From NCBI GenBank assembly GCA_012295275.1, contig CM022667.1:5270001-5334000 (forward strand): DNA of 64,000 nucleotides, in the 5' to 3' direction. Within the stretch, counting starts at the first letter, position 1, and each line of letters begins with the position of its first letter. The position numbers were made by a program, and so were the translations under genes. The stretch is from Chrysomallon squamiferum (lineage: Eukaryota > Animalia > Mollusca). The notes under the pieces are model-generated. The model worked only from the letters and a program-made list of their open reading frames with translations, did not search any database and was not told the origin of the DNA. Positions 1-62,748 of the stretch are shown in pieces.

Positions 1-159
1 TGAAAAGTGTTAGGAAGGAAATAAAATCAGTATAGAAAAAAAAATTAAAGAATGAAAAATGCTAAAAAGTTATCAAGTAAATATTATTATCCAAGAGAAA
101 AATAATATATTGAAATAAATTAATAGTTAACAACACAAAGGGAGTACTTTATCTATTCG

Positions 160-470
160 AGTTCATTAAGTACAATTAAATGGAAATGTACTATGACTCG
201 CAGTTTACAGTACATGTGGTAAGACTAACGCATTTTCTCTACTTATGTTAGTTAAGTACAGTTCATTGGAACTACTGATTAACTAATGTATTTTATTAAT
301 TTGTGTTACTTTAGTACTGTTTATAGGAAACGTAGCATGACTAACGCATTTCATATTTTTCTCTTAGTTAAGTACAGTTTATAGAAAATGCAGTATGACT
401 AATAAATTGTTTCTACTTGAGTTAGCTAGGTACAGTTTATACGAAATGTAGTAAATTAAAGTATTAATAA
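160..470. repeat. Degenerate ~58-bp intronic minisatellite (first of many blocks in the array)
   Basis: Consensus approx. agttaagtacagtttacaggaaatgcagtatgactaatgtattttatctacttgtgtt, repeated about 4-8 times in many introns (e.g. 1380-1720, 2810-3160, 4740-5080, 8500-8945). Confidence 0.8.
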
Positions 471-492
471 GACTGGGTATGACGAAATTTAC

Positions 493-510
493 CCTCAATA
501 TTGCTGTCGA
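493..510 (-). pseudogene. Dead micro-exon (VDSNIE class)
   Basis: Homologous to the DDSNxE exons, but the acceptor is CGG instead of CAG and the donor is weakened to GTAAAT. Confidence 0.6.
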
Positions 511-1054
511 CCGAAAATAGTGAGGAAAATTGAAATAAATAAAGGGAAAATGTTACATATGAAATAGTGGTTTTAAAGATAAAGGTAAAGTGAAACAAAT
601 AGCTCAGTGATAATGAAAAAAGAAAGTAAACATTAACAAAACAAGAAAAAATCCGAAAGATAACGGAGCAAAAACAACAACAAGAGTAATAACGATAAAA
701 AGCAATTAATATTATGGATTAGGTGTATTACTTTTAGCTCTTTTCATTACATATTTTGAACTGTAGATAGACAGATAGGTAGATATAATGTTAGAAGAAT
801 TGTGCTCAATTGTATTTTATATTTTAAGGCCGAATTATATGTAATCATTAATTCAGAACTATACATTTTATGTGGATAAGCAGCCGAAAATTAGTGTAAC
901 GTATTGCAGTTCCCTAATAAAACTAATCAGATTAATGAAGTAGTATCAGCGCATTTGACGTTTGTGTAATAAAAGTAAAAATTCAAATAGAATTAAATAA
1001 AAGTTAAGAGAAATTAAACGAATGCGCTAGAAATAAAATATTAAATGAAAAATG

Positions 1055-1108
<54 letters not shown>

Positions 1109-1218
1109 GTAAAGCATTACGAGCAGATTACAGTGGTACCAACAGTATTTCACCTACTGTTCGTTAAGTTAAGAGGTTTGAATCATTTTGTAATTGGATT
1201 GAATATCACGAAACTTAC

Positions 1219-2017
1219 CACCGACATCACTGGAGACTGGAAAGTGTCAGGAAGAAAATAAAAAATGTAGAAACAAAAAGAAAAGGAAAAAATGTTAAAA
1301 AGTTATAAAGTAAATGTAAATATTCTAGAGAAAAAATAGAATGAAATAAATGAATCGTTGACAACACAAAGGCAGTACTTTATTAATGTTCATTGTGTAC
1401 AATTAATATGAAATGTTCTACCGACTCACGGATCTTATCTACTTATGTTAGATCTGTACAGGTTACAATACATGTGGTATGTCTACCGTTTTTTTCTATG
1501 CTTATCTTAGTTTCGTATAGTTTACTGGAAACGCAGTATAACTAATGTATTGTATCACTTTGTTTTACTTAAGTACAGTTTAGAGGAAACGTAGCATATC
1601 CAATATATTTTATCTTTTTGTGTTGTGTACACTTTACAGGCAATGCAGAATGTTTAATATATTTCTTCTACTTGTGTTAGATAAGCACAAACGATAGAAA
1701 ATGTAGTACGACTAATGTATGACAAAACTTACCCTCATCATTGCTGTCGTCTGAAAATATGAGGAAAAACAAAAGAAAGGAAGAAAAAAGATAAAGGGTT
1801 AAAAAAAAGTATATTTAATAGATATCAAAGAAAATGTAAAGTGAAATAAATAAATCAATAATAATAATGAAACAAGAAACTAAATATTAAATAAAAAAAA
1901 AAAAAAAAAATAGAAAAGAAAAAAAAAATTGAAAAGAAAAACGACCAACAACAACAAAAGTAATAATAATAAAAATCTATTAACATTATGGATTAGGAGT
2001 TTTACCTTTAGGAATTT

Positions 2018-2057
<40 letters not shown>

Positions 2058-2126
2058 GTCTATATTTTTATCTCGATATATCTATCTACATGTGTGTATG
2101 TACAAATCAATACCATGGATACTAAG

Positions 2127-2177
<51 letters not shown>

Positions 2178-4128
2178 TGGTATCGATGGCATTTTATATG
2201 CTAAGACTGAATGATATATGATAGTTAATTGTGAACTATAATTTGTATGTGGATACGTAGCTGAACTTATTGGAATGTATTGCATTTCTCTATTAAAACT
2301 AAGGAGAATAATAAAGTTGTATAAACGCGTTTCGTCTTTAGGTAATAAAAGTAAATTTTAATTTTATTTAATTAAAGTAGAGTTGGAATGAACTACGAAA
2401 CAGTTTTAAGTGCAGATGTCAAGATGTTATCTACTGTCACTTAGAAAATGTATGACGTTTAACGGAACGACAGAGAAATAAAGTATTGAAATAAAACTCA
2501 AAAAAAAAAAAAATATATATAAAAAGCATTACGAGCAGATTACAGTGGCAGCAATAGTATTTTACCTACCTGTGTTCATTAAGTACAGTTTATAGGTTGC
2601 ACTACTTTCTTAATAAGATTGAATATGACGAAACTTACCGTTCATATCATTGTCGAGTGTAAAGTGGACAGTAACGTCTTAGGAAGAAAATAAAAGCAAT
2701 GTAGAAACAAATAAAGAAGAATAAATATTTGAAAAACATAAAGTAAATATTAATATTAAAGAAAAAATGTAGTAAAATGAATTAATAATACAGATCACAA
2801 CGTCAGCAGTTTATCTATGTGCATTAATTAAGTACAATGTATCGGGAATGTACTATGACTAACGGATCTTATCTGCTTTTGTTCGGTAAGTACAGATTAA
2901 CGGAAATATTGATTAACTAATGCATTTCATCTATTTGTCTTACTCAAAATACAGTTTACAGGAAATGTAGCATGACAAGTGTATTTTACCTAACTAAGTT
3001 AGTTAAGTTCAGTTTACCGGGAAAGTAGCATGACTAATGTATTTTCTATATTTGTGTTAGTTAAGTAAAGTTTACAGGAAATGCAGTTAGACATATCTAT
3101 TTCATCTACTTGAGTTAGTAATGAAGAATGCATAGGACATGTTCCACAAGGAATGTATTAATACGACTGGGTATGACGAATCTTACCGAGAGGTTTGGGT
3201 CCTGCTGAAAGTTGTGAGGTAAAATGATAGAAATAAAGTGGAAATGATTAAAAGTTTAAAAAGAAATAGTGATATTAAAGAAACAAACAAGTAGAAAATA
3301 TATCATAACGATAATGAAAAAGAAAATAAATATTAAGAAATGTATTTACATGCATTCATATATCTATCTATATATACATAGATACACACACACATACATA
3401 CACACACACACACACACACTCATATATAAATACATACACACACATAAATACAGTATATACACAAACATATATATTGAGTAAATTTTAGAATAACTCATCT
3501 TGAATGGTATTTCATATCCTAAGTCTGAATTATATATATTAATTAATTGTGAACTATAATTTTTTGTGTGGGTAATTTGCAGAAATTATTGGAATAGATT
3601 GTAGTTCTCTTATAAAAGTAAAGAGATTAATAAAATAGTATGAACGCTTTTGCTGTTTAGGTAATGGAAGCAAAAATGGAAATAGAAAAAAAAATTAAAT
3701 TAAAAGAAATCAAAATTATGAGAACGAAATAATATATTTTATCTACTTGTATTACTTAGGAACAATGTATAAGAAATGTAGGTACAACTTATGTATTAAT
3801 AAGACTGGGTATGACGAAACTTACCCTTAACTTTGCTGTCGTCTGAAAATTGTGAGGAAAAAATGATAGAAATAAAATGGAAATGATTAAAAGTTTGAAA
3901 AGAAATAGTGATGTTAAATAACTCAGTAATAATGAATCAAGAAACTAAACATTAAGAAAAGAAGTAAAAAAAAAAAACGAAAGCTAAAGGACCAACAACA
4001 AGAAGAAGAAGAGTAATAACGATAAAAAGCTGTTAACACTGTGGATGAAGTGTATTAGTTTTAGAACTTTTCATTATATATTTTCAATTATTTCTTTCTC
4101 TCTAAATTATTGTTGTCGTTGTTATTAT

Positions 4129-4163
<35 letters not shown>

Positions 4164-7100
4164 GTGTGTTTGTCTCTATGTGTGAGACAGTATATTTATA
4201 TACATACATTCATTTATATATCTATATAGGTATATATATATATATATAATCGTAGACAAACTTGTGCTCAATTGTATTTTATATCTTAAGGCTGAATTAT
4301 ATATAATCTAAATGAGAACTATGATTTTTGTGTGGATAAGCGGCCGAAAACTATTGGAATGTATTGCAATTCTCTAATAAAACTAAGCAGATTAATAAAG
4401 TAGTATTAACGCAATTGACGTTTATGTAATAAAAGTAAAAATCGAAATAGAATTAAATAAAAGTTAAAAGAAATTACGAGCAGATTACAGAGGTACCAAC
4501 ACTATTTCACCTTCCTCTATTCGTTAAGTAAATTTAATAGGTATGGATAAGTTTCTAATTGAATATCACGAAACTTACCATCGACATCACTGGCGACTGA
4601 AAAGTGTTAGGAAGAAAATAAAAACAATGTAGAAACAAATAAAGACGGAAAAAATGTTAAAAAGTTATAAAGGTAATGCATTGTATTTTATTTATAAAAA
4701 CACAGTGAAATAAATTAATAATTAAAAACACAAGGGCAGTACTTTATCAATTTGAGTTCATTAAGTACAATTAATGGGAATTGTACTAAGACTCACGGAT
4801 CTTATCTACTTGTGTTAGATAAGTACAGGTTAAGTATTTGTGGTATGACTACAATATTTTGTCTACTTATATTAATTGTGTATAGTTTACTGTAAATATT
4901 GATTAACTAATGTATTTTGTCTATTTGTGTTACTTAAGTACAGTTTACAGAAACATAGCATAAGTAATAAATTTGATCTTTTAGTGTTAGTCTACTTTAA
5001 AGGAAACGCAGTATGTTTAATATATTTCTTCTACTTGTGTTAGATAAGTACCACTGATAGGAAATATAGTACCACTAATATATTAATAATACTGGGTATG
5101 ACGAAACTTACCCTCAACATTGCTGTCGTCTGAAAATATGAGGAGAAAGAAAAGAAATAAAGAAAAAAGATAAAAGGTTACACAAAATATGTATAAAAGA
5201 TATTAAGAAAAATGTAAAGTATAATAAATAAATGAACAATAATGAAACAATAAAATAAATCTTAACAAAAGAAAGAAATTCAAAAGACAAAACGACCAAC
5301 AACAACAACAACAAACGTTATAATAATAATAAAAAATTAACATTATGGATTAGGTGTGTTACTTTTAGAACTTTCCATTATTTATTTTCAATTACTTCTT
5401 TATGCTTAAATTATTATTGTTGTTGTTGTTGTTGTTCTTCTTATTATTATTATGTACATGTACTACGACTAACGGATCTTATCTGGTTGTGTTGGGTAAG
5501 TACAGATTAACGGAACTATTGATGAACTAATGCATTGCATCCAATTCTGTTATTTAAATACAGTTTACAGGAAACGCAGCATGAATAATGTATTTTGTCT
5601 GTTTGTGTCAGTTAAGTAAAGTTTACAGGAAATGCAGTTTGACTAATATATTTTATCTACTTGAGTTCGTTAGTAACAATGTATAAGAAATGTTGTACAA
5701 CTAATGTATAAATAAGACATTAATGTATTAGTAAAATTATGAGGAAAAGTTGTAGAAATAAAGTGGAAATGATTAACAGTTTAAAAAGAATTAGTGATGT
5801 TAAAGAAAAAAATAAAGTAAAATATATAACTTAATAATAATGAAACAAGAAAATAAATAATAAGGAATGTAGATATACACATTCATATATATATATATGC
5901 ATAAACCAATACCGTCGATACTAAGTTATATATATATACATATATATATATATATAAGAATAATAGAAGTTGTATAAGCGCCTTTCGTGTTTAAGTAATA
6001 AAGTAAATTTAATTTAATTTAATTTATGTAAACGTGGAATGAAGTACGAAACAATTTCAAGTGCAAAGGTCTAGATTTTATCTACTGTCCCTTCGAAAAT
6101 TTAGGACGTAAATTAACATTACTATCATTGTCTATATTGTCTGATAATATAACAAAATAAAATAAATAAAACATAAATAGACAATTAAATGGCATAAAAA
6201 AACATTAATAATAATATTGAAAAAATATTGAAATCGAATAAAACGACAATTAAGAGAAATTAAACGAATGAGAAAGAAATAAAATATTAAAACAAAACTG
6301 AAAGAACGAAACAAATTGTAAAAGTTTACGAGTAGATTACAGTGGCAACAGTAGTATTTTACCTAACTGCGTTCGTTAAGTACAGTTAATAGTTTTCACT
6401 AATTTCCTAATAAGGTCGAGTATGACGAAACTTACCATGCATATCATCTCCGTCTGGACCGTAGATTGGATACTCTTAGGAAGAAAATGAAAGAAATGTA
6501 GAAGAAATAAAGAAGAACAAATATTAAAAAGTGATAAAGTAGATATCAATATTAAAGAGAAAAATGTAGTAAAATGAATTAATAATAAAGATCACAACCG
6601 CTGTATCTTGTTTATTTGCGTTCATTACGTACAATTTATGAGGCATGAACTATGACTAACGGATCTTATCTGCTTGTGATGGATAAGTACAGTCTAACGG
6701 AAATATTGATTAACTGAAGCGTTTGATCAATTTTTGTGACATAAATACAGTTTATAGGAAACGTAGCATGACTAATGTATTTTCTCTATTTGTCTTAGTT
6801 AAGTACAGTTTACAGGAAATGCAGCTTGATTTATGTATTTTATCTACTTGAGTTAGTTAGGAAGAATGCATAGGACATGTTCCACAACGAATGTATTAAT
6901 ACGACTGGGTATGACGAATCTCACCGATAGGTTTGGGTCCTTCTGAAAGTTGTGAGGTAAAATGATAGAAATAAAGTGGAAATGATTAAAAGTTTAAAAA
7001 GAAATAGTGATATTAAAGAAAAAAACAAGTAGAAAATATATCATAACGGTAATGAAAAATAAAATAAATAATAAGAAATGAATTTTCATGCATTCATATA

Positions 7101-9144
7101 TCTATCTATATATATATATATATAGATACACACACACATACACACACAGATATATATCCAACCACACACACTCATATATAAATACATACACACACATAAA
7201 TACATTATATACACAAACATATATATTGAGTAAATATTAGAATAACTCATCTTCAATGGTATTTCATATCCTAAGTCTGAATTATATATATTAATTAATT
7301 GTGAACTATAATTTTTTGTGTGGGTAATTTGCAGAAATTATTGGAATGGATTCTAGTTCTCTTATAAAAGTAAAGAGATTAATAAAATACTATGAACACT
7401 TTTGCTGTTTAGGTAATGGAAGCGAAAATCGAAATAGAAAAAAAATTAAATTAAAAGAAATAAAAAATATGAGAAGGAAATAAAATATTAATATTAACAT
7501 ATAAAAAATATATTTGTAAAGTATTAGGGGAACATTGCAGTGGTAACAGCAGTATTTTACCTACCTCTGCTCGTTAAGTACACTTTATAGGTGGTACTTA
7601 TTTCCTAATTAGATTGAGTATCATGAAACTTACCCTCGAAATCAATGGCCACTGAAAAGTTTTAAGAAGAAAATAAAACCAAAGCAGAATCGAATAAAGG
7701 AGGAAAAACTGTTTAAAACTGATCAAGTAAATATTAGTATACACGAGAAAGAAGTATGTATGTCTATGTATAAATCAGTGAATGTGGATATATATTTCTA
7801 TATGTAATCTGGTACGGATGGTATTTTATATCTTAAGGCTGAATTATATATAATAATTAATTGTGAACAATGATTTGTGTTTTCATAAATAGCAGAACTT
7901 ATTCGAATGTATTTCATTTCTCTAATAAAACTAAGGAGAATAATAAAGTTGTATATATGCGTTTCGTGTTTTAGTAATCGAAGTAAATTTTAATTTTATT
8001 TAGTTTAAGTAGAGTTGGAATGAAATACGAAAGAATTTCAAGTCCAGATGTCAAGATTTTATCTACTGTCTTTTAGAAAATGTATGACGTCAATTAACAT
8101 TACTTTCATTGTCTCTATTTTCAGATGATATAACAAAAATAAAATAAATAAAGCGTAAATAGACAATTAAATGGTATAAGATAACTTTTATAATAGTATT
8201 GAAAAAAGTACATGGAAATCGAATAAAATAAAATCTAAGATAAATTAAACGAATGAGAAAGAAATAAAATATCAAAATAAAACAGAAAGATCAAAAAAAG
8301 TATTTGTAAAGCACGATTGAGAATGTCCAAACTTACTTTCCGGATCATCGTCGTCTGGAAAGGGGAGTGTATAGACTCAGTAAGAAAATAAAGGAAATGT
8401 AGAAAAAAATAAAGAAGAAAAAATATTAAAAAGTCATAAAGTAAATATTAATATTAAAGAGTAAAATGTAGTAAAATGAATAAATAATAAAAAATACAAC
8501 TGCAGTACTTTATCTATCTGTGTTCATTAAATACACTTTATGGGGAATGTACTACGACTAACGGATCTTATCTGGTTCTGTTGGGTAAGTACAGACTAAC
8601 GGAAATATTGATTAACTGAAGCGTTCGATCAATTTTTGTTACATAAATACAGTTTATAGGAAACGTAGAATAACTAATGTATTTTATCTATTTGTCTTAC
8701 TCAAAATACAGTTTACAGGAAACCTAGCGTGACTAATGTATTTTCTGTGTTTGTGTTAGTTAAGTACAGTTTCATCAATTTTTGTTACATAAATACAGTT
8801 TATAGGAAACGTAGCATGACTAATGTATTTTCTCTATTTGTCTTAGTTAAGTACAGTGTACTGGAAATCCAACTTGATTTATGTATTTTATCTACTTGAG
8901 TTAGTTAGGAACAATGTATAAGAACTATTGTACAATTAATGTATTAATTCCACTGGGTATGATGAAACTTACCCTTAGGTTTGCTGCCGGCTGAAAATTA
9001 TTAGGAAAAATGATAGAAATAAAGTGGAAATGATTAGAAGTTTAAAAAGAAGTAGTGATGTTACAGAAAGAAATAAAGTAAAATATATAACTTAATAATA
9101 ATGAAACAAGAAAATAAATAATAAGTAATGTATATATACACATT

Positions 9145-9181
<37 letters not shown>

Positions 9182-12100
9182 AATGTTAGAATAAGTTATG
9201 TTCAATGGTATTTAATATGCTAAGGGTGAACTTTGTATAATCATTAATTTTGAAGTATAATTTTGTTTGTGGATAAGTTGCAGAAATTATTGAAATAAAT
9301 GGCAATTCTCTAATAAAACTTAAGTGATTAATAAAATAGTGTGAACGCTATTGTTGTTGATGTAAAGGAAGTGAAAATCGAAATAGAATAAAACGAAAAT
9401 TAAGAAAAATTAAACGAATGAGATAGAAATAAAATATTAATATAAAACAAAGAGAAAATATATTTGTTAAGTATTACGGGCAGATTGCAGTGGTAACTGC
9501 AGTATTTTACCTACCTCTGCTCGTTAAGTACACTTTATAGGTGGTACTTACTTCCTAATTAAATTCAGTATCATGAAACTTACCATCGACATCACTGGCG
9601 ACTGAAAAGTAGTAGAAAGAAAATAAAAGCAATGTTGAAACAAAGAAAGAAGGAAAAAAATGTTAGAAGATTATCAAGTAAATATTAATATTCATCAAAA
9701 AAATAAAAAATAAAAAATACAGAGAAATGATTTAATAATTTATAACACAAGGACAGTACTTTTTCTATTGGTGTTTATTAAGTACTTTTAATGGGAAATG
9801 TACTATTACTAACGGATCTTATCTACTTGTTTTAGACAAGTACAGTTTATAGTGCATCTGGTTTGACTAACGCATTTTCTCTACTTATGTTAGTTAAGTA
9901 TAGTTTAGTGTACATATTTATAAACTGATGTATTTTATCAATTTGTTTTTCTAAAGTTCTTAATACAGGAAACGTAGCATGACTAAACCATTTTCGATTT
10001 TTCTCTGAGTTAAGTACACATACTGGAAATGCGATATGACTAATAAATATTAACTACTTGAGTTAATATGTACAATTATTACGAAATGTAGTAAAACTAA
10101 TGTATAAATGGGTCTGGGTATGACGAAACTTACCCTGAATATTGCTGTCGTCTGAAAATATGAGGAAAAACAAAATAAATAAATGAAAAACATAAAATGT
10201 AATAGAAAATATATAGAAAGGATGTTGTAGAAAATGGTAAAATATAATAAAGAAATGAACAATAAGGAAACAAGAAAATAAATCTTAACGAAAGAAGAAA
10301 AAATGCAAAAGACAAAACGACCAACAACAACAAGAAACGTAATAATATTAAAACATATTAACATTATTGATTAGGTGTATTACATTTAGGACTTTTCATT
10401 ATTTATTTTCAATTACTTCTTTCTCTTTAAATTATTATTATTGATGTTGTTGTTTTTATTATAATTATTATTATTATTATTATTATAACGTACAAGTACA
10501 TATATATACATATGTTTATATTTAAGAACGATACAAGTTGTAAAAACGCGTTTCGTGTTTAAGTAATAAAAGAAAATTTTATTTTATTTAATTTAACTAG
10601 TCGTGGAATAAAGCACCAAACAATTTCAAGTGCAAAGATCAAGACTTTATCTATTGTCTCTTAGAAAATGTATGACGTAAATTAACATTACTATCATTGT
10701 CTATATTTTTGGATAATATAATAAAAATAAAATCAATAAATCATAAATAGACAATTAAATGGGAAAAGAAAACTTTTATAATAATATTGAACAAAATTAT
10801 GGCAATCGAATAAAAATTTTTTTTAGATAAATTAGAGGAATGAGATAAAATTAAAATATTAAAATAAAACTGAAAGAACAAAAAAATATATTTTGTAAAG
10901 CATGATTGAGTATGACGAAACTTACCATTCGTATCAGGGAGAGGGGGTTTTGGAACGGGGGCTTAGGAAGAAAAGAAAAGAAATGTAGAAAGAAATAAAC
11001 AAGACAAAATATTTTAAAGTCATCAAGCAAATATTAATGTTAAAGGGTAAAATGTAGTAAAAAGAATAAATAATGAAGAACACAACTGCAGTACATTATG
11101 TATTTGTGTTCATTAAATACAATTTATGGGGAATGTACTATGACTAACGGCTCTTATCTGATTGTGTTGGGTAAGTGCAGATTAACGGAAATATTGATCA
11201 ACTAATGCATTTCATCCAATTCTGTTATTTAAATACAGTTTACAGGAAACGCAGCATGAATAATGTATTTTGTCTGTTTGTGTCAGTTAAGTAAAGTTTA
11301 CAGGAAATGCAGCTTGATTTATGTATTTTATCTACTTGAGTTCGTTAGGAACAATGTATAAGAAATGTTGTACAACTAATGCATAAATAAGATATTAATG
11401 TATTAATTATATTATGAGGAAAAGTTGTAGAAATAAAGTGGAAATGATTAACAGTTTAAAAAGAATTAGTGATGTTAAAAAAAAAAAAGAGTAAAATATA
11501 TAACTTAATAATAATAATATACAGTTTATAGGAAACGTAGAATGACTAATGTATTTTCTCTATTTGTCTTAGTTAAGTACAGTTTACAGGAAATGCAGCT
11601 TGATTTATGTATTTTATCTACTTGAGTTAGTTAGGAAGAATGCATAGGAAATGTTCCACAAGGAATGTATTAATACGACTGGGTATGACGAATCTTACCG
11701 ATACGTTTGGGTCTTCCTGAAAGTTGTGAGGTAAAATGATAGAAATAAAGTGGAAATGATTAAAAGTTTTAAAAGAAATAGTGATATTAAAGAAAAAAAC
11801 AAGTAGAAAATATATCATAACGATAATGAAAAATAAAATAAATAATAAGAAATGAATTTTCATGCATTCATATATCTATCTATATATATATATATAGATA
11901 CACACACCCACTCATATATAAATACATACAAACACATAAATACATTATATACACAAACATATATATTGAGTAAATTTTTGAATAACTCATCTTGAATGGT
12001 ATTTCATATCCTAAGTCTGAATTATATATATTAATTAATTGTGAACTATAATTTTTTGTGTGGGTAATTTGCAGAAATTATTGGAATGGATTCTAGTTCT

Positions 12101-30100: not shown

Positions 30101-33100
30101 AAGTATCATGAAACTTACCATCGACATCACTGGCGACTGAAAAGTTTTAGAAAGAAAATAAAAACAATGCAGAAACGAATAAAGACGGAAAAATTGTTTT
30201 AAACTGATCAAGTTAATATTAATATTCATGAGAAAAATATGTGTGTCTATGTATAATTCAGTAATTGTGGATGTATAATATATATATAATCCAGTATTGG
30301 TGGTATTTTATATGTTAATGCTGAATTATATATAATAATTGACATTGAACTATTATTTATGTGTGGATAAATAGCAGAACTTATTCGAATGTATTGCATT
30401 TCTCTAATAAAACTAAGATAAGTAATAAAGTTGTATAAACGCGTTTAGTGTTTTAGTAATCGAAGTACAATTTAATTTTATTTAGTTTAAGTAGAGTTGG
30501 AATGAAATACAAAATAATTCCCAGTCCAGATGTCAAGATTTTATCTATTGTCACTTAGAAAATGTATCACGTAAATTAACATTACTATCATTGTCTGTAT
30601 TTTCTGACCGTATAACAAAAATAAAATCAATAAGTCATAAATAGACAATTAGATGGCGTAATAAAACTTTTATAATAATATGGAAATAATTATGGAAATC
30701 GAATAAAATAAAATTATGATAAATTAAACGAATGAGAAAGAAATAAAATATTAAAACAAAACTGAAAGAACAAAAAAAAATATTTATAAAACTTGATTAA
30801 GTATGCAGAAAGGTACTTTCCCTAAGATGGGGAAGGTTGCGTATATCGGGTTAGGTAAGGACTTATGAAGAAAATGAAAAAAGTGTAGAAGGAAATAAAG
30901 AAGAACTAATGTATTTCTTCTATTTGTCTTACTGAAATACAGTTTGCAGGAAACGTAGCAACACGAATGTGTTTTCTCTATTTGTGTTAGTTAAGTACAA
31001 TTTACAGGAAAGGCAGTTTTACTAATATATTTTATCTACTCGAGTTTGTTAGGAACTATGTATAAGAAATGTTGTACAACTAATATATTAATAAAACTAA
31101 GTATGACGAAACTTACCGTTATATTTGATGCCGGCTGAATATTATGAGCAAAAATGATAGAAATGATTTAAAGTTTAAAAAGAAGTAGTGATGTTATAGA
31201 AACAAAATAAAGTAAAATATATAACTTAATAATAATGAAACAAGAAAATCAATAATAAGTAATGTATATACACACATTCATATATATGTCTATAGTAAAG
31301 GTTTGAATAATTTATGTTCAATGGTATTTAATATGCTAAGGGTGAAGTTTTATGTAATCATTAATTGTGAAGTATAATTTTGTTTCTGGATAAGTTGCAT
31401 AAATTATTGGAATGAATTGCAGATCTCTAATAAAAGTAAAGAGATTAATAAAATACTGTGATCGCTTTTGCTGTTGATGTAAAGAAAGTGAAAATCGAAA
31501 TAGAATAAAACGAAAATTAAGAAAAATTAAACGAATGAGATAGAAATAAAATATTAATATAAAACTGAAAGAGAAAATATATTTGTTAAGTATTAGGGGC
31601 AGATTGCAGTGGTAACAGCAGTATTTTACCTACCTCTGCTCGTTAAGTACACTTTATAGGTGGTACTTATTTCTTAATTAGATTTAGTATCATGAAACTT
31701 ACCTTCGTCATGAACCCCGACTGAAAAGTGTTAGAAAGGAAATAAAAGCAATGCAGAAACGAATAAAGACGTACATTTTTTTAAAAACATCTGAAGTAAA
31801 TATTAATATTCACGAGAAAGAAATAAGTTTGTCTAGGTATAAATCAGTAATTGTGGATGTATAATATAAATATATATATGTATATCATCTAGTATCGGTG
31901 GTATTTTATATGTTAAGGCTGAATTATACATAATAATTGATTGTGAACTATAATTTGTGTGTGGATAAATAGCAGAACTTATTCGAATGTATTGCATTTC
32001 TCTAATAAAACTAAGAAGAGTAATAAAGTTGTATAAGCGCGTTTCGTGTTTTAGTAATCGAAGTACAATTTAACTTTATTTAGTTTAAGTAGAGTTGGAA
32101 TGAACTACGAAATAATTTCAAGTCCAGATGTCAAGATTTTATCTATTGTCACTTAGAAAATGTATCACGTAAATTAACATTACTATCATTGTCTGTATTT
32201 TCTGATAGTATAACAAAAATAAAATCAAAAATCATAAATAGACAATTAAATGGCGTAATAAAACTTTTATAATAATATGGAAACAGTTATGGAAATCGAA
32301 TAAAATAAAATTAAGATAAATTAAACGATTCAGAAAGAAGTAAAATATTAAAAGAAAACTGAAAGAACAAAAACAAAATATTTATAAAACTTGATTAAGT
32401 ATGACGAAACTTACTTTCATTAAGAGGGGGAAGGTTGTCTATATCGGGTTGTGTAAGGACTTAGGAAGAAAATAAAATAAATGTAGAAAGAAATAAAGAA
32501 GAAAAGATATTAAAAAGTCATAAAGTAAATATTAATATTAAAGTGTAAAATGTAGTAAAATGAATAAATAATAAAGAACACAATGGCAGTACTTTATCTG
32601 TTTGTATTCATTAAATACAATTTATGGGGAATGTACTATGACTAAGATACTAATCTTATCTGGTTGTGTTGAGTAAATACAGTCTAACGGAAATATTGAT
32701 TAACTAATGCATTTCATCTATTTGTCTTACTGAAATACAGTTTGCAGGAAACGTAGCAACACTAATGTGTTTTCTCTGTTTGTGTTAGTTAAGTACAATT
32801 TACAGGAAAGGCAGTTTTACTAATATATTTTATCTACCCGAGTTTGTTAGGAACTATGTATAAGAAATGTTGTACAACTAATATATTAATAAAACTAAGT
32901 ATGACGAAAGTTACCGTTAAGTTTGATGCCGGCTGAAAATTATGAGCAAAAATGATAGAAATAAAGTGGAAATGATTAAAAGTTTAAAAAGAAGTAGTGA
33001 TGTGAAAGAAAAAAAAATAAAGTAAAATATACAACTTAATAATAATGAAACAAGAAAATAAATAATAAGTAATGTATATACACACATTCATATATATGTC

Positions 33101-34895
33101 TATAGTAAAGGTTTGAATAATTTATGTTCAATGGTATTTAATATGTTAAGGGTGAAGTTTTATGTAATCATTAATTGTGAAGTATAATTTTGTTTGTGGA
33201 TAAGTTGCATAAATTATTGGAATGAATTGCAGATCTCTAATAAAAGTAAAGAGATTAATAAAATAGTGTGATCGCTTTTGCTGTTGATGTAAAGGAAGTG
33301 AAAATCGAAATAGAATAAAACGAAAATTAAGAAAAATTAAACGAATGAGATAGAAATAAAATATTAATATAAAACTGAAAGAGAAAATATATTTGTTAAG
33401 TATTACGGGCAGATTGCAGTGGTAACAGCAGTATTTTATTTACCTCTGCTCGTTAAGTACACTTTATAGGTGGTACTTATTTCTTAATTAGATTTAGTAT
33501 CATGAAACTTACCTTCGTCATGAACCCCGACTGAAAAGTGTTAGAAAGGAAATAAAAGCAATGCAGAAACGAATAAAGACGTACATTTTTTAAAAAACAT
33601 CTGAAGTAAATATTAATATTCATGAGAAAGAAATAAGTTTGTCTATGTATAAATCAGTAATTGTGGATGTATAATATAAATATATATATGTATATCATCT
33701 AGTATCGGTGGTATTTTATATGTTAAGGCTGAATTATACATAATAATTGATTGTGAGCTATAATTTGTGTGTGGATAAATAGCAGAACTTATTCGAATGT
33801 ATTGCATTTCTCTAATAAAACTAAGAAGAGTAATTAAGTTGTATAAGCGCGTTTCGTGTTTTAGTAATCGAAGTACAATTTAACTTTATTTAGTTTAAGT
33901 AGAGTTGGAATGAACTACGAAATAATTTCAACTCCAGATGTCAAGATTTTATCTATTGTCACTTAGAAAATATATCACGTAAATTAACATTACTATCATT
34001 GTCTGTATTTTCTGATAGTATAACAAAAATAAAATCAAAAATCATAAATAGACAATTAAATGGCGTAATAAATCTTTTATAATAATATGGAAACAGTTAT
34101 GGAAATTGAATAAAATAAAATTAAGATAAATTAAACGATTCAGAAAGAAGTAAAATATTAAAACAAAACTGAAAGAACAACATTTTTTTTTTTATAAAAC
34201 TTGATTAAGTATGACGAAACTTACTTTCATTAAGAGGGGGAAGGTTGTCTATATCGGGTTGTGTAAGGACTTAGGAAGAAAATAAAATAAATGTAGAAAG
34301 AAATAAAGAAGAAAAGATATTAAAAAGTCATAAAGTAAATATTAATATTAAAGTGTAAAATGTAGTAAAATGAATAAATAATAAAGAACACAATGGCAGT
34401 ACTTTATCTGTTTGTATTCATTAAATACAATTTATGGGGAATGTACTATGACTAAGATACTAATCTTATCTGGTTGTGTTGAGTAAATACAGTCTAACGG
34501 AAATATTGATTAACTAATGCATTTCATCTATTTGTCTTACTGAAATACAGTTTGCAGGAAACGTAGCAACACTAATGTGTTTTCTCTGTTTGTGTTAGTT
34601 AAGTACAATTTACAGGAAAGGCAGTTTTACTAATATATTTTATCTACTCGAGTTTGTTACGGACTATGTATAAGAAATGTTGTACAACTAATATATTAAT
34701 AAAACTAAGTATGACGAAACTTACCGTTCAGTTTGATGCCGGCTGAAAATTATGAGCAAAAATGATAGAAATAAAGTGGAAATGATTGAAAGTTGAAAAA
34801 GAAGTAGTGATGTTAAAGAAAGAAATAAAGTAAAATATTTAACTTAATAATAATGAAACAAGAAAATAAATAATAAGTAATGTATATACACATTC

Positions 34896-34932
<37 letters not shown>

Positions 34933-37900
34933 CAAATGTTAGAATAATTTATGTTCAATGGTATTTAATATGCTAAGGGTGAAGTTTTATGTAATCATTA
35001 ATTGTGAAGTATAATTTTGTTTCTGGATAAGTTGCATAAATTATTGGAATGAATTGCAGATCTCTAATAAAAGTAAAGAGATTAGTAAAATACATAGCTT
35101 TTGCTGTTGATGTAAAGGAAGTGAAAATCGAAATAGAATAAAACGAAAATTAAGAAAAATTAAACGAATGAAATAGAAATAAAATATTAATATAAAACTG
35201 AAAGAAAATGTATTTGTTAAGTATTACGGGAATATTGGAATGAAACTTATCATCGACATCACTGGCGACTGAAAAGTGTTAGTAAGAAAATAAAAGCAAT
35301 GTAGAAACAAAGAAAGAAGGAAAAACTGTTATAATATTTTCAAGTAAATATTAATATTCATGAGAAAAAAAATACAGTGAAATGATGTAATAATTTACAA
35401 CACAAGGGCAATACTTTTTCTATTGGTGTTTATTAAGTACTTTTAATGGGAAATGTACTATGACTCACGGATCTTATCTACTTAAGTACAGTTTATAGTA
35501 CATTGTGGTTTGACTAACGTATTTTCTCTACTGATAGTTTAGTGGACATATTTTTTAGTGGACATATTTATTAACTGATGTATTTTATCAATTTGTATTT
35601 CTTAAGTACTGTTTACAGGAAACGTAACATGACTAAACCATTTTATATTTTTCTCTGAGTTAAGTGCACATACTGGAAATGCGATATGACTAATACATTT
35701 TATCTACATGTGGTATAAACGAAGCATGACTAAAGCATTTTATGTTTCTGTTAGTTAAGTAAAGTTTACAGGACAGCAGTATGAGTAATAAATGTTATGT
35801 TCTTGAGGTAGCTAGGTGGAATTTATACATAATGTAGCAAACATAATGTATTAGTTAGACTGGTATGACGAAACTTACCCTCAGTATTGCTATCGTCTGA
35901 AAATACGAGGAAAAATAAAAGAAATAAAAGAAAAACTGTAAATATTGATTAGCTAATGTATTTTATCAATTTGTGTTACTTAAATACAGTTTACAGAAAC
36001 ATAGCTTAAGAAATATATTTTATCTTTTTGCGTTAGTTTACTTCACAGAAAATGCAGTATGTTTAATGTATTTCTTCTACTTGTGTTAGATAAGTACAAC
36101 TGATAGGAAATATAGTACCACTAATATATTAATAATACTGGGTATGACGAAACTTACCCTCAACATTGCTGTCGTCTGAAAATATGAGGAGAAACAAAAG
36201 AAATAAAGAAAAAAGATAAAATGTTTCAAAAAATATGTATAAAAGATTTTAAAGAAAAATGGTAAAGTATAATAAATAAATGAACAATAATATTGAAGAA
36301 AAATAGAAATGATAAACGACCAACAACAATAACATGAAAATTAATAATAATAAAACCCTATTAACATTATGCATTATCAGTGTTATCTATATGACGTTTA
36401 ATTATTTATTATGAATTATTTTTTTTTCTCTTTAAATTATTGTTGTTTTTATTATTATTATTATTCTCTCCATCTATCCATATATATATATATATATATA
36501 TAGTAAATCTTAGAAGAATTTGTTTTCGATCGTGCTTTATATGCTAAGACTGAATTAAATATAATCATTTTTGTTAACTATATTTTTTGTGTGGATAAGT
36601 AGCAGAAATTATTGTAATATATTGCATTACTCTTATACAACTAAGCATATTAATAAAGTTGTATACAAAGTTAAAATAAAACACAAAAAAATAAAACGCC
36701 TTTCATTTTTAGGTAATAAAAGTAAATTTTGTTTTTATTTGACTTGAATTGAGTTGGAATGTTCTACCAAACAATTTAAAGTGCAGATGTCAATATTTGA
36801 TCTACCGTCACTTAGCACGAATTATTCACAGTATGACGTAAATTACTATTGCTATCATCGTTCGCATTTTGTGATAATAGAACAAAACTGAACTAAATAA
36901 AGCTTAAATAGATCATTAAACTGTAACAAAAACATTTATAATAATGTACAAGAAAAAATATCGAAATAGAATAAAGTAAAAATTAAGAGAAATCAAAGGA
37001 GTGAGATAGAATTCAAACATTAAACTAAAAGTACAGTTTATAGGTATGACTAATTTCCTAATAAGACTACCAATAATAATAAATATAACTAATCTTAGCA
37101 TCGACATCTCTGTCGACTGAAAAGTCTTAGGGAGAAAATAAAAGCAAAGTAGAAACAAATAGAGAAGGAATAAATATTAGAAAGTTATGTAGTAAATATT
37201 AATATTAAAGAGAAAGAATACTGTGATATATATATTTTTAATTAACTACACAAAAATAACGGCAACAAAAACAATAACAGGAACAACAACATCAATAACG
37301 ACATATTAACATTATGGAAAAGGTATGTTGCGTTTCGTATTTTTTTATTTTCCATTTTCTATTATTGCTATTGTTCTGTTGGTCGATGGTATTTGATAAA
37401 CACTGAATTATTTATGATAATTAACAGTGAAGTTTAAGTTTAGTGTCGTCAAATAACCGAAATTATTGGAATGCGTGGCATTTCTCTAATAAAAATACAT
37501 TTTGATTTCATGTAATTTAAACACATTTAGAATGTCATACGAACGACATTCAAGAGTAAACGTTAAGATTTTTGTCACTGGCGCTCATTAAACAGAATTT
37601 ATCAGTGCGGTCAAAAAATCTGAGGAAGAAAATAACAGGAATGTACAAACAAATAAACAAGTAAAAAGTGATTAAAAATGTACAAAGTAAATATTAAAAT
37701 TAAAGAGACAAAATGCAGTAAAATAAATTAATAATTAATAACACAATAACAACAATAACAACAACAACAACAACAACAGCAACAAAAGTAGTACCACAGA
37801 TAATAATAAGAACAAAATTTTAATGTTATGGAGAAGAAAAGGTTGCCTTTCTTATTTTTTCATTATTGATTTTCTGGGTTTTGGGATTTTTTTTTCTAAC

Positions 37901-38481
37901 GGTTGATGGTATTTCATAAACACTGAATTATTTATAATAAGTGTGAACTATATGCTTTGTATTACTACATGGCAGATTGTTGGAATTCGTCGTGATTCTC
38001 TCGTAAAAATAAATTTAGTGTTTATGTAATTAATCTATGCAGACTAACAGTGCAGTACGAGCGCATCTCGTGTTTATCCAGTAAAAAGAAAGTTTGTTTC
38101 TATGCAATTTAAATAAATGTAATAAGCGATATGAAAGAATTTCAAGTATAAACGTCAAGATTATATCTACTGGTTCTCGTTAAATACTTTTTGAGAAATG
38201 ATATTGAGAATGATAAAATGTTCTAGTAACTTCCTCTATCTATTCTCACGACAGAAAGGGAAGAAGAAAAAATACATTATGAATTTTTTTTTTTTTTTTT
38301 TTAAATACAAATAAAGAATAAGAATTCAAAACATTAATAATAAAATGTAAGAAAATAACGAAATTAGAGTGAAATAAAGATGAAGAGAAACTAAACGAAT
38401 ACTATGGTGTTCGGTAAAGTGCAGGTTATCTAATTTCCTATTAAGACTAAGTATGAGGAAACTTACCACTGACTTTAGTCG
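1219..38481 (-). CDS. Array of ~53 symmetric phase-1 micro-exons encoding an acidic/Pro-rich low-complexity polypeptide (partial gene; continues beyond window start)
   Basis: On the + strand each unit reads gtatgacgaaacTTAC-[exon]-CTgaaaa or -CTtaggaag, i.e. minus-strand acceptor AG ... donor GTAAGT. Exons in transcript order with phase-1 translation: 38467-38481 TTKVS; 36158-36175 DDSNVE; 35879-35896 DDSNTE; 34725-34742 AGIKLN; 34225-34269 VLTQPDIDNLPPLNE; 33513-33530 IGVHDE; 32915-32932 AGIKLN; 32415-32459 VLTQPDIDNLPPLNE; 31703-31720 IGVHDE; 31117-31134 AGIKYN; 30119-30136 VASDVD; 29514-29531 AGSKPK; 28936-28953 DDDEPE; 28243-28260 IAIDFE; 27566-27583 DGPELI; 27077-27115 EYPIYGPVGNDMH; 25896-25931 APVPEPPLPDTN; 25208-25225 DDSNIQ; 24659-24676 VAGDVD; 24054-24071 AGSKPK; 23418-23435 DDDDPE; 22715-22732 IAIDFE; 22039-22056 ARPKPI; 21266-21301 APVPEPPLPDMH; 20085-20120 APVPKPPLPDTN; 19397-19414 DDSNIQ; 18849-18866 VASDVD; 18238-18255 AGSKPK; 17659-17676 DDDDPE; 16956-16973 IAIDCE; 16277-16294 GRPKRI; 15505-15540 APVPKPPLPDTN; 14816-14833 DDSNIQ; 14269-14286 VASDVD; 13657-13674 AGSKPK; 13079-13096 DDDDPE; 12377-12394 IAIDCE; 11699-11716 GRPKRI; 10926-10961 APVPKPPLPDTN; 10134-10151 DDSNIQ; 9584-9601 VASDVD; 8973-8990 AGSKPK; 8337-8354 DDDDPE; 7634-7651 MAIDFE; 6925-6942 EGPKPI; 6436-6474 EYPIYGPDGDDMH; 5112-5129 DDSNVE; 4579-4596 VASDVD; 3825-3842 DDSKVK; 3187-3204 AGPKPL; 2639-2677 DVTVHFTLDNDMN; 1733-1750 DDSNDE; 1219-1236 VSSDVG. 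All lengths are multiples of 3 and only phase 1 is stop-free across all classes. Another acceptor (tgaaaagtgttaggaag) sits at position 1. Confidence 0.85.
7400..30200. repeat. Near-identical tandem segmental repeats, unit ~4.58 kb (variant units up to ~5.8 kb), each holding 7-8 micro-exons
   Basis: The Pro-rich exon recurs at 10926, 15505 and 20085 (spacing 4579, 4580) and at 25896 (5811). The AGSKPK exon recurs at 8973, 13657, 18238, 24054 and 29514. Introns are almost base-identical between copies. Boundaries approximate. Confidence 0.9.
29550..35230. repeat. Tandem repeat, unit ~1.81 kb, about 3 copies, 3 micro-exons each
   Basis: Exon pairs 31703/33513, 32415/34225 and 32915/34725 are each exactly 1810 bp apart; the first copy is shorter and degenerate. 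Boundaries approximate. Confidence 0.85.
30817..30861 (-). pseudogene. Dead 45-nt micro-exon
   Basis: Copy of the VLTQPDIDNLPPLNE exon with an in-frame TAA (CAA>TAA) and donor changed from GTAAGT to GTACCT. Confidence 0.7.
35251..35268 (-). pseudogene. Dead micro-exon (VASDVD class)
   Basis: Exon body and acceptor intact, but donor GT>AT (+ strand aaacttat). Confidence 0.65.
37099..37116 (-). pseudogene. Dead micro-exon (VDRDVD)
   Basis: Acceptor ttttcag intact; donor GT>CT (+ strand aatcttag). Confidence 0.55.
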
Positions 38482-41400
38482 CTAAAAGTACTGAGGAAGA
38501 AAATGAAAGAAATGCACAAACGAATAAAGAAGGAAAAAAAAATCAATAAAAAAGTTAAATCGTAAATATTGATATTAAAGAGAAAACTGTAATAAAATAA
38601 ATTAATAATTAATATCGTAATAACAGCAACAAAGTATTGATATTGTGAAGAATTAAGGTTGCCATTCGTGTTTTTCACTATTCTGTTTCCATTCTTTTCT
38701 TTTTTTTCGATGGTGTTTTATAAACACTGAATTATTTAATACTTTAGGTTTAGTTTCGAGAAATAACCGAAATTTTTGGAATCCGTGGCGTTTTTCTAAT
38801 AAAAATAAATTTAGATTTCATGTAATTTAAAAACATTTAGAATGTAATACAGAACGAAATTCACAAGCAAACATCAAGATTTTAGGAACTGGCCCTCTTT
38901 AAATAGAATTTACAGAAAAAGTACTAATGATTGTCACTATGCTGGAAGTTACCATTAGTATCATCGTCGTCTATATTTTGTCGTAATAATAAGAACATAA
39001 ATTAAAATAAATAATACAAAAAGATAATTAAATGGTTCGAATATCATTAGTAATAATATTGAATGAAATAATTGAAATAGATTTCAATAAAAACAAATGG
39101 AAATTAAATAAAAATAGAGAAACAAAAAGATTTTATGAAGCTGAGACAAAAGATTTATAAAGTAACACAATTACAGTAGTAATAGTGTATTTTATCTACT
39201 TGCTTTCGTTAAGTACAAATTATAGGAAATGTGGTATGAGTAATGTATTATTAACAATGATGAAATAAACCATGAGAATTACCGTCGCCTGAAGACTGAT
39301 GGAAGAAAAAAGTCAATAAAGACATAAACAAAAGAAAAGAAAATTCAAAAGTTTAGAAATAAATAGGCATGTCAAAGGAAAAAGTAAAGCAATATGAATA
39401 AATAAGTAGGAATTAAAATGATAATAATAACCATAATAACATTATCGACAAGGAAGGTTGCATTTCGTAGTTATCCTTTATTTCCTAATACTTCTTTCTA
39501 CATTTATTTTTGAAATCTTATAATAACTTATGGTCAGTGGTATTATATAATCACTGAATTATTTATAATAATTGTGAACTATACGCTTAGTATGAATACA
39601 TGACACAGATTGTTGGAATGCGTCGCGTTTCTCTCATAAAACTAAATTTAGTTTGCTTGTAATGTAAGTAGATTAACAGTGTAGTATGAGCGCATTTCAT
39701 ATTTATCCAGTAAAAAGAAAGTTTGTTTATATGCAATTAAAATAAATTTAGAAAGCGATATGAAAGAATTGCAAGTATAAAGGTCAAGATTTTATCTTCT
39801 GATGTTCAGTAAATACCTTTAGAGAAATGATATTCAGAATGATGAAATTTATTAGTATCTTCCTCTATGTGTTCTCACGAAAGAAGAAATAATTATTAAA
39901 AAAAAAATAATAATAATAAAAATTAAAAAAAAAAAAAATGAAGCATAAAAACAGTAAAATGTTTCGAAAACGTTAATAATAACACTGAAAAAATAATAAT
40001 ATTAAAGTTCAAAGTAATAAAACTGAATTTATATATAAAAAGAAAAGAAAAAGAGAATGAGCGACCTCTGTCTAATGGGGAATTCTGTTCTGGCTATTTT
40101 TGTCACAAATACTCCTATTACTATTACTACTACTACTACTACTACTACTACTAATAATAATAATAATAATAAGAAGAAGAAGAAGAAGAAGAAGAATACT
40201 AACAAAAAGTAAATAAATAAATAAATAAATAAATATTAAAATAAATAAATAAAAAGAAATAAATTCAATTCATACCAGTTATTAAAATAAACACCTGTTC
40301 AGTTACTGCTTGAACAATTTAATTTTTATTCTAAATTAGAAAAGTTACTAATTCTTGTATCAGGTAGATAACATCAAACTTCAAAAACAAAATCCTGCAT
40401 AGTTCTTGTGCCAGATATGACGACAGTTGATCCTAGTCTACGTTATATACACTTTCAGATATTAAGAGAGAAGGAAATAATTACTTTTCCTCCGAGTACC
40501 CTGAACATAGAGCATAAACAGTTTCTGTTTCGTTTGGTCTGGCCGAGCCTAATTTCTTAAACGAGAGAAAAATGGTCAGACAAAATGTTTAGATCTTGAT
40601 ATCTCAGCTAGCCCTGAATAGCTGAAGAAATATCAATTTAACAATGTTTGGTGTGTGCAAAACAAACATTACTGGCTTAGGCATGCATATTGCTGACCTA
40701 CATTAGCCAAAATCTCTAGAATTTCTATATGAACTGTTTTCGAAACGGTATATGCGTCAAATGAAAGGGGAAAGAATGAAAAGTATTTTCACTTCAAATA
40801 CCAAGCCCCTTAGATCACCCAACAACAGTTCCTTTTTGTTTTCTTTCCTGCCTGTAATACACCACCAAGTGTAGGTTCGTTCCATACCGCAATTATCACC
40901 CTACCCGTTTTGTAGTTAACTGCGATTGTTGTGTTATGAATGATAACTTTGGTCTTTCTTTTAATGTTTTTAGAATAGCCAAGTCTCCTGTTTCTTTTCT
41001 TCTTTTTTTGTTTTGATAATAAACACAAGAATAATATTCTCTGTGTAAAAATATATTTTTGAGGTTGGACAGTGAAGAGAATAGTCATACTTCAGAGATT
41101 GGACGTAGATTTATTTCATGTTTCCCTTTGCACCAGAATGACTATTATGAAGTCTGGTCTACTGATTTCTGAAATACTGTGTTCATCCCTCTTTTGTTTA
41201 AAAATATAAATTTTGGAAAAGTTGATGATACAAAACTATCAATCCAAGAAAGATTATTATTTAAAATGAACTTTCATATGATTTTTTTTATCAAAATTTT
41301 AATCATTCCTGTTAGAACGTTTTTGGCACATGACTCACTTCCACTGTACGTTAATGTTTACATGATGCAAAACAAATTGAAGGCTCTGCACCCACAAAAT

Positions 41401-41519
41401 AAACCGCGCAAAATGCACATAAACACAAATATAATATACACTTATGGGTATTTATGTACATATGTTTGTGTGCTTGTCTCTTTGTTTATATAACGCAAAG
41501 TTTTGTATATACAACTTAC

Positions 41520-41840
41520 TTGCAATAGATTTGTTGCATGTCATTTCACCATCACGCAAGTCACCATCAGTGCAAGCATACACCCCTTCATCGACTTGAT
41601 TGAAATTATTCATGATGACAATGATCATCTCCCCCTTAATCACTGCTGAGTATCTTTCGTCGTATGTCTCACACTTCGTATTTTGACGATTACAAACAAC
41701 AACGTTTTGCGAATGACCAGCTTTCATCCGTGAAATTTTTATTCCTTCAGTTACAGTACCAACTACCATACACGCTAAGCTCGTACTTCGTCCCTTCAGA
41801 GCATCATCCACACAATCTATATACGTTCTTGCTAATCCCA
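41520..41840 (-). CDS. Ig-like domain exon (gene C), 321 nt, phase 1-1
   Basis: Acceptor tttgcctag and donor gtaagt. Translation GLARTYIDCVDDALKGRSTSLACMVVGTVTEGIKISR...VVVCNRQNTKC...DEGVYACTDG...MTCNKSIA has a DxGxYxC F-strand motif and six Cys aligned with the other exons of the family. No signal or TM exon was confidently found for it. Confidence 0.85.
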
Positions 41841-46415: not shown

Positions 46416-55283
<8,868 letters not shown>

Positions 55284-58335: not shown

Positions 58336-58447
58336 TTATGGTTGTGAAACATCAATCGTTCTATTATTGTCCATAGATGTTGCTTCAGACTTTTCTTCAT
58401 TTTCTAATTTAGGAAAGGATTCGTAAACAATTTTGGGTTTCCTGGAC
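58336..58447 (-). CDS. Gene A cytoplasmic terminal exon
   Basis: RSRKPKIVYESFPKLENEEKSEATSMDNNRTIDVSQP*; shares the acceptor context, IVYExF and DVSQ with gene B. Confidence 0.8.
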
Positions 58448-58495
58448 CTGTGAACAAAATGTCCAGAAACATATTTAAAAACTACATAGTACAAA

Positions 58496-58527
<32 letters not shown>

Positions 58528-58532
58528 TTAAA

Positions 58533-58571
<39 letters not shown>

Positions 58572-58576
58572 TTAAA

Positions 58577-58610
<34 letters not shown>

Positions 58611-58614
58611 TAAA

Positions 58615-58672
<58 letters not shown>

Positions 58673-59868: not shown

Positions 59869-59915
<47 letters not shown>

Positions 59916-61450: not shown

Positions 61451-61482
<32 letters not shown>

Positions 61483-61904: not shown

Positions 61905-61977
<73 letters not shown>

Positions 61978-62713: not shown

Positions 62714-62748
<35 letters not shown>

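Follow-up and report, generated by a model that had tools for sequence, protein, structure and literature searches.

Series of small symmetric exons are known from a few gene systems, three of which come closest to the gene reported here. This gene, referred to as gene C, lies on the minus strand of a 64,000-nucleotide (nt) stretch of the genome of the mollusc Chrysomallon squamiferum (assembly GCA_012295275.1, contig CM022667.1, positions 5,270,001 to 5,334,000), the whole of which is called the window. The butyrophilin-like BG genes of the chicken form a tandem multigene cluster with a signal exon, one immunoglobulin V (Ig-V) exon, and 13 to 38 small symmetric split-codon exons of 21 nt, some of 18 or 24 nt, whose number varies by gene and allele; these micro-exons come after the exon for the membrane segment, and their product is a coiled coil in the cytoplasm (PMC5938342, PMC4046983). 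In SmPoMuc of Schistosoma mansoni, a 27-bp micro-exon was duplicated with its introns into repeats of approximately 1 kb, up to 20 per gene in clustered genes, and the repeats are near-identical glycosylated mucin units (PMC2576457). Micro-exon genes (MEGs), described as restricted to flatworms, evolve fast and consist mostly of very small symmetric exons (10-20 exons, mostly of 15 bp) for which splice variation was shown, and VAL-6 (SmVAL6) is a VAL gene joined to a MEG-like exon series (bioRxiv 2023.06.21.545858, PMC4350168). Gene C is none of these. A preliminary description of the same DNA had proposed a micro-exon array within an apparent satellite. The leader exon and the V-set-like Ig exon that form the head of the gene had escaped it. 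The array is the 3′ part of a real, transcribed gene inside satellite-like DNA.

The curated list of the array, whose minus-strand features are taken in order from high to low coordinate, holds 55 candidate islands between an AG and a GT (493-38490), and 53 of them are intact. Two were excluded before counting: island 30861-30817, with an in-frame stop and a weak GTACCT donor, and island 510-493, with CGG where the AG acceptor is expected. The intact islands have CAG (43) or AAG (10) acceptors and GTAAGT (46), GTAAGA (5), GTAACT (1), or GTGAGA (1) donors. Across all 55, lengths are 18 nt (43 islands), 36 nt (5), 45 nt (3), 39 nt (3), and 24 nt (1); the introns measure 255-2291 nt (median 658), and the GC content of the islands is 51% versus 26% for the array. 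Micro-exon 1 (24 nt, 38467..38490) is followed by micro-exon 2 (18 nt, 36158..36175) and by 51 further intact phase-1 candidates of 18, 36, 39, or 45 nt, predicted from sequence (1219..35896). The acceptor tract of one more unit (1..38) ends at position 1, and therefore the array runs past the window and the 3′ end of gene C lies outside it.

A chance control was applied to positions 1-38,600 with a rule asking for a pyrimidine tract, AG, 9-60 nt, and GTRAG. The minus strand gave 53 islands and the plus strand none, while 100 dinucleotide shuffles averaged 4.4 islands, with 11 at most; this agrees with the more than 50 symmetric islands first reported. The units fall into 17 flank classes, and because copies are duplicates, the 53 islands are not 53 independent events. 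All 53 lengths are multiples of three as had been stated, except that the first island is 24 nt by RNA and not 15 nt; the summed length is accordingly 1167 nt (389 amino acids, aa), and the 1158 nt (386 aa) given earlier hold only with a 15-nt first island. This rule takes the nearest AG and gave a multiple of three in only 46 of 53 islands, since 19 exons contain an out-of-frame CAG 11 nt from the donor; in the one observed exon having this CAG, the RNA uses the 18-nt acceptor. Nine exons have a second in-frame acceptor at most 60 nt from the donor.

When the 55 islands are joined, the three offsets contain 5, 55, and 1 stops, the lone one sitting in the excluded island at 30861. Phase 1 is the sole open frame, and this part of the preliminary description stands, as does its statement that any subset of exons can be skipped in frame: all 16 types of junction codon occur, and every ordered pair of the 53 exons joins through sense codons. 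The predicted product is rich in aspartate (D 19%, D+E 26%) and proline (14%), and with S+T at only 8% (8.2%) the array peptide is not a mucin. The 55 exons comprise 33 distinct sequences, many exons being identical copies. If all 53 were used, micro-exons would make up 1167 of the 1540 coding nt of gene C in the window (76%), two of them shown spliced. Across all units, the ten bases after the donor hexamer (+7 to +16) are more conserved than the next 24, which could point to an enhancer of splicing or be a bias of the way in which the units were detected. An upstream TGC is the motif of the neural micro-exon programme; it occurs 5-25 nt upstream of only 4 of the 53 exons, and control by that programme is unlikely.

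Splicing was followed in contigs of four runs listed by a search with the Ig exon (X1 to X4, with X1 and X2 being RNA runs from one study), compared over 41030-41845. The Ig exon share was 0.77 in X1 and 0.71 in X2. One contig each from X1 (record 1, depth 7.1) and X2 (record 6, depth 57.7) matches the whole Ig exon (41520-41840) and leaves the genomic sequence at both splice sites. No RNA depth was present in X1 or X2 over the intron at 41142-41505, a region covered by X3, and a low-depth X2 contig covers the intron at 41030-41126. X3 has the Ig exon with coverage running on through the intron, as expected of DNA. In X4 there is a piece of a paralogue and not the gene C Ig exon, which does not prove that the latter is absent. 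Upstream, the loose ends of the X1 and X2 contigs correspond to the end of the leader exon at 43810. Downstream, beyond the Ig donor at 41520, 30 loose letters in both runs are the whole 24-nt exon 38490-38467 and the first 6 nt of an 18-nt exon. These 30 letters match none of six alternatives compared, and nowhere in the window do they stand as one uninterrupted sequence. The last 6 letters begin eight exons, the nearest of which starts at 36175 and is taken as micro-exon 2. The leader is spliced to the Ig exon, the Ig exon directly to micro-exon 1, and micro-exon 1 to micro-exon 2, with the first two junctions after the Ig exon identical in X1 and X2; the exon model proposed earlier is supported by RNA to this extent.

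Other islands were considered for the position after the Ig exon. Those near 39295 and 38970 keep their GT, are in neither RNA contig, and were rejected for this position; the donor-dead island at 37116 is likewise not in the X1 and X2 contigs. Further contigs on 41616-41703 and 41807-41840 match part of the Ig exon and then continue differently, one such piece coming from X4, the run without gene C. This indicates no fewer than two or three additional paralogues or alleles, in which the leader end and the first 30 nt of the Ig exon are nearly exact and the following sequence is divergent, as patchy gene conversion would give.

The leader exon (43810..43882) has its ATG at 43861 and a GTTAGT donor; the RNA loose ends behind 41840 are its last 13-18 nt. 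It encodes a short hydrophobic sequence that is predicted, by eye, to be a signal peptide. A small AG..GTAAGG island at 43672-43692 on the minus strand lies between the leader and Ig exons and is not in the RNA contigs joining the two. The Ig exon (41520..41840, 321 nt, phase 1-1), covered by RNA from end to end and located 3 kb upstream of the array, encodes a 106-aa domain with six conserved cysteines. Its Pfam V-set match (E 6e-4, 20.4 bits) is below the gathering cut-off of 26. An AlphaFold2 model calculated from four window paralogues reached a predicted local distance difference test (pLDDT) value of 72.7, and Foldseek returned CD8aa as the top match along with antibody V domains. A VIA structural comparison with V domains gave a Z of 12.7 and a root-mean-square deviation of 2.2 over 103 aligned residues, and the sequence profile of the domain matches CD8 alpha with an E-value of 0.006. 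As modelled, the domain has a V-type beta-sandwich fold. The hallmarks of the V-set are the B- and F-strand cysteines, a D-x-G-x-Y-x-C motif, and a C-strand tryptophan. Gene C has C23, C89, and DEGVYAC, and Ile35 at the C-strand position, where 79 of 117 family domains have Trp. CD8 alpha, the top structural and profile match, also carries one V domain on an extended stalk, which is short and O-glycosylated; the identity of 12-19% amounts to fold likeness only.

Compared with the described systems, gene C would by analogy work most like the chicken BG genes. It too combines a signal exon, one Ig-V exon, and small symmetric split-codon exons in a clustered family. Unlike in BG, its micro-exons directly follow the Ig exon, are on the extracellular side, are mostly 18 nt, Pro/Asp-rich, and at least 53 in number, and its relatives are molluscan; no 21-nt heptad exon as described for BG is found among the 55 islands, and proline reaches 14%. 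With SmPoMuc, gene C shares the duplication of micro-exons with their flanking introns as tandem genomic repeats. It differs from the published account of that gene in its 33 distinct exons, its low S+T, its higher-order repeats, and its N-terminal Ig domain. As in MEGs and SmVAL6, most of the coding sequence would be found in symmetric exons of very small size, provided that all 53 are used. In contrast to MEGs as described, gene C is a member of an Ig family with a duplicated exon-intron array, and its named Ig relatives are from gastropods and not from flatworms. The GranRep/YYD repeats were set aside as an analogue, the GranRep repeats being described as lying within one exon (PMC11703226). 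Nothing pertinent to gene C came from bioRxiv 2022.06.24.497555 or PMC7736800.

Relatives of the Ig domain were not found in word-indexed protein searches. A HMMER profile search of 1.84 billion representatives gave 95 matches with E-values down to 6e-92; 30 of these were looked up, among them 20 from Gigantopelta aegis, 2 from Lottia, and 1 from Haliotis, and the stalk itself was not searched. Atlas searches likewise pointed to mollusc clusters. Examples from G. aegis are XP_041373349.1 ('CEACAM6-like'), XP_041373497.1, and XP_041361641.1, and each of the six cysteines is kept in 103-117 of the 117 family domains. On these sequence matches, the gene C domain is assigned to an unnamed, clustered six-cysteine V-like Ig family of gastropods, with which it shares the cysteines, the profile match, the clustering, and, in some members, stalks and isoforms with stalk deletions. 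In a tree, the domains from the window fall, with modest support, outside the expansion of G. aegis sequences. A cephalopod affinity, as the AT-rich DNA with its many microsatellites might suggest, was not supported, the named relatives being gastropod. Several relatives have low-complexity stalks; a stalk of approximately 390 aa after one Ig domain was seen in none of the matches listed of the 95 HMMER hits. In two RefSeq models of G. aegis, stalk segments are missing: isoform X3 of LOC121386609 is shorter by exactly 6 aa in a stalk that is rich in Pro and Asp and close to the membrane, and isoform X3 of LOC121377638 lacks 16 aa in a repeat stalk. The G. aegis protein XP_041373078.1 has one family Ig domain, then a short Thr/Ser-rich repeat stalk, and further Ig-like sequence; its stalk is a candidate second micro-exon array. 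A 'CEACAM5' family is listed among the immunity families expanded in G. aegis (PMC7895826). One match being named CEACAM6-like, that family probably equals the present one. No description of this mollusc gene or of the family structure was found in the literature searched, which was mostly non-subscription.

Two paralogues lie upstream on the minus strand of the window. Gene B (46416..55283), with a predicted length of 353 aa, contains two Ig exons, a micro-exon stalk, a helix, and a tail. Its first Ig exon (53873-53553) follows a leader and is itself followed by a 27-nt linker; the second (51209-50889) is succeeded by phase-1 micro-exons of 15, 30, 27, and 45 nt, a hydrophobic membrane-helix exon (47420-47354), and a tail with IVYETF and NPVF (46416-46551). 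For the second Ig exon, the reading frame is maintained only if a GC donor (GCAAGT) at 50888 is used, the corresponding donor of gene A being GTAAGT; this is either a GC-AG intron or a damaged donor. Gene A (58336..63793), whose leader is outside the window, has an Ig exon (63793-63458), phase-1 micro-exons of 15, 27, 45, 36, and possibly 42 nt, a hydrophobic membrane-helix exon (58855-58789), and a tail with IVYESF (58336-58447). The tails have K-x-x-IVYE(S/T)F in common, besides which B has NPVF, and we take these motifs to resemble ITIM (immunoreceptor tyrosine-based inhibitory motif) or endocytosis motifs. Both genes are predicted to encode type I membrane proteins. As both place four to five symmetric phase-1 micro-exons between Ig and helix, a micro-exon stalk is a trait of the family, and the gene C stalk is likely, judging from exon structure, an approximately tenfold expansion of it. 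Gene C does not stand alone in the manner of a MEG: the array is attached to a V-set Ig domain of a gastropod-related family whose paralogues carry micro-exons between the Ig domain and the membrane helix. An intron of gene A contains a helix-turn-helix fragment (59468-59722, plus strand; Pfam HTH_38, E 1.7e-6), likely a transposase remnant. Two short open reading frames on the minus strand (47937-48164 and 45443-45811) have the appearance of mobile-element remnants; a Pfam search of both gave nothing convincing.

A single profile of the 18-nt units matches all 55 islands and further dead ones, and the units therefore share an ancestor. Exons were duplicated together with introns, as seen from higher-order repeats with offsets of 1.8, 4.58, and 5.5-5.8 kb. 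The youngest of these (10555..20673) has an offset of 4579 nt, is 99.3% identical, and carries six intact exons per unit; a three-exon 1.8-kb repeat (30891..35237) is 95.8% identical. More than 20 dead or skipped homologous units on the minus strand (493..39311) travel with the higher-order repeats. They include single donor losses at 37098 and 35250, a TTAAT-donor class with 15 copies (33987 to 6116), and six units with deleted exons (26431, 21801, 20620, 16040, 11461, and 5786), and also the two excluded islands at 30861 and 510 and the islands near 39295 and 38970 that the RNA contigs pass over. The 36-, 39-, and 45-nt exons begin at an upstream CCTAAG; at this site, the sequence is CCTAAC in several classes of 18-nt exons. 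Six of the 10 longer exons retain an inner AG that is in frame and lies 18 or 24 nt before the donor, and the longer exons may have arisen through an acceptor shift. A descent of the RPKPI-type exon from the 45-nt stalk exon of gene A (14 of 18 nt, reached by 31 of 2000 shuffles) is only suggestive. Many array introns (282-29448) also contain a 58-59-nt minisatellite in 2-5 copies each. In two recent copies on the minus strand (16973-16956 and 12394-12377), a cysteine was gained, AIDCE from AIDFE, which could cross-link stalks.

The selection on the exon sequences was evaluated by parsimony counting in 46 recent copies of 10 classes. These contain 39 exon changes, compared with 22.5 expected at the flank rate and 34 after GC/CpG correction (P = 0.22). 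Synonymous variants, which had been offered as evidence of coding, are present and not enriched, with 29 nonsynonymous to 5 synonymous changes versus 15.1 to 4.2 expected (P = 0.41), and this argument does not hold. In a deep tree of 35 distinct 18-nt units, the rates at codon positions 1, 2, and 3 were 1.79, 1.90, and 1.45, compared with 0.90 in the flanks, and between old classes exon columns changed faster than flank columns (3.5 vs. 2.3 changes per column, P = 0.005). We do not propose positive selection, as exon changes that at first seemed twice as frequent as expected, and an apparent surplus of nonsynonymous ones, were lost after parsimony counting and GC/CpG correction. On these counts, the residues show no purifying selection, and any acceleration amounts to a hint at most. 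Such neutral-looking changes fit a spacer; they also leave room for unused distal exons.

With a confidence somewhat above even, we read the array as a long acidic, proline-rich spacer in an Ig gene, the length of which is set by exon units and some skipping. The whole micro-exon series would encode a probably disordered stalk that holds the V-type Ig head away from the cell. Exons 3-53 would mostly be included in order, and gene C would end in a membrane anchor outside the window. Phase-1 symmetry would allow units to be gained, lost, or skipped without a frame break, so that stalk length could vary through unequal crossing-over, the presumed driver of copy number, and through some in-frame skipping. 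Frame and bulk composition would then outweigh exact residues, and the Ig family may work in recognition or adhesion at the cell surface. Counted in support of the spacer were the splicing in X1 and X2, the stalks of A and B, the V-set fold, the relatives, the repeats and dead units, the lack of purifying selection, the G. aegis isoforms, and the length of the X1 contig. That contig runs on for 89 nt beyond the Ig exon, the length expected when the first five exons are joined in order, provided that the two GIKLN-type copies do not differ in that animal.

Several observations weigh against this reading. Joining in order with the alleles of the window predicts a contig break 104 nt past the Ig exon, and neither X1 (89 nt) nor X2 (60 nt) matches. 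Two micro-exon junctions were seen, covering 30 of 89 loose letters in X1 and 30 of 60 in X2, from one study and in contigs, not reads. Ten exons depend on AAG acceptors, and the absence of stops is a weak signal, with 1.5-2 stops expected (P 0.13-0.23). The exons contain no indels compared with 25 indel patterns in the flanks, which is weak given 246 exon versus 3415 flank sites. Motif searches of the window gave no membrane or tail exon of gene C, so the protein could be secreted or anchored by glycosylphosphatidylinositol.

The strongest alternative to the spacer, which we consider unlikely, is a MEG-like combinatorial diversification, in which extensive skipping and alternative in-frame acceptors would generate a large stalk repertoire on one Ig head. 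Every pairwise exon join is in frame and stop-free, nine exons offer a second acceptor, and G. aegis isoforms without stalk segments exist, although these are RefSeq models. The deep X2 contig stops 60 nt after the Ig exon. With the exons joined in order, this is precisely where the third micro-exon finishes, and a constitutive model predicts no break there. This break could stem from skipping, a retained intron, or an allele; reading contig breaks in this way presumes, as we assume, 31-mer graphs, which fits the start of the X2 contig. However, X1 and X2 agree in the first two junctions, and neither contig is interrupted there. The faster change of exon columns between old classes favours diversification, whereas the excess in recent copies disappears after GC/CpG correction. 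With 33 distinct sequences among 55 exons, skipping would alter length more than sequence. A molluscan Ig surface receptor with a combinatorially spliced ectodomain of more than 53 six-residue micro-exons, and a large repertoire of stalk lengths and sequences per individual or cell, is equally doubtful. If true, it would amount to diversification on the host side with an origin separate from those of Dscam, FREPs, and schistosome MEGs, and the birth and death of exons in the tandem array would keep renewing it.

It is improbable that only the first few micro-exons are used and that the distal array is a runaway, near-neutral tandem expansion, block-skipped or past the transcript end. The neutral-like N/S ratio, the dead units carried within repeats, the 99.3% identical units, and RNA evidence that stops at exon 2 would agree with this. 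Against it, AG/GT, lengths of 3n, and an open frame are intact in five exon lengths and 17 flank classes. The 89 nt of the X1 contig point to the fifth exon and to a second transcribed copy, and up to the edge of the window neither a stop nor a terminal exon was encountered. Least probable of all is a secreted acidic matrix protein of shell, sclerite, or mucus, with cations bound by the Asp-rich repeat and the Ig domain serving as its anchor: the acidic composition, the lack of a membrane exon in the window, and Ig-domain proteins reported in a vent-snail sclerite proteome (PMC11871041) would suit it, but the products of genes A and B are predicted to be membrane proteins of type I, and four gene C peptides were not in the four supplements of that work, which may hold no sequences and may concern a different species.

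The locus presents an expressed gene concealed in apparent satellite DNA and micro-exon evolution caught in progress, with unit duplication, donor loss, and probable lengthening via new upstream acceptors. It points to a clustered mollusc Ig family with stalks of symmetric micro-exons. If wide skipping does not occur, the stalk would still be an extreme length-variable spacer, with an exon number above those given for the BG and SmPoMuc arrays in the papers compared; if it does, an invertebrate would have a new means of varying its receptors.

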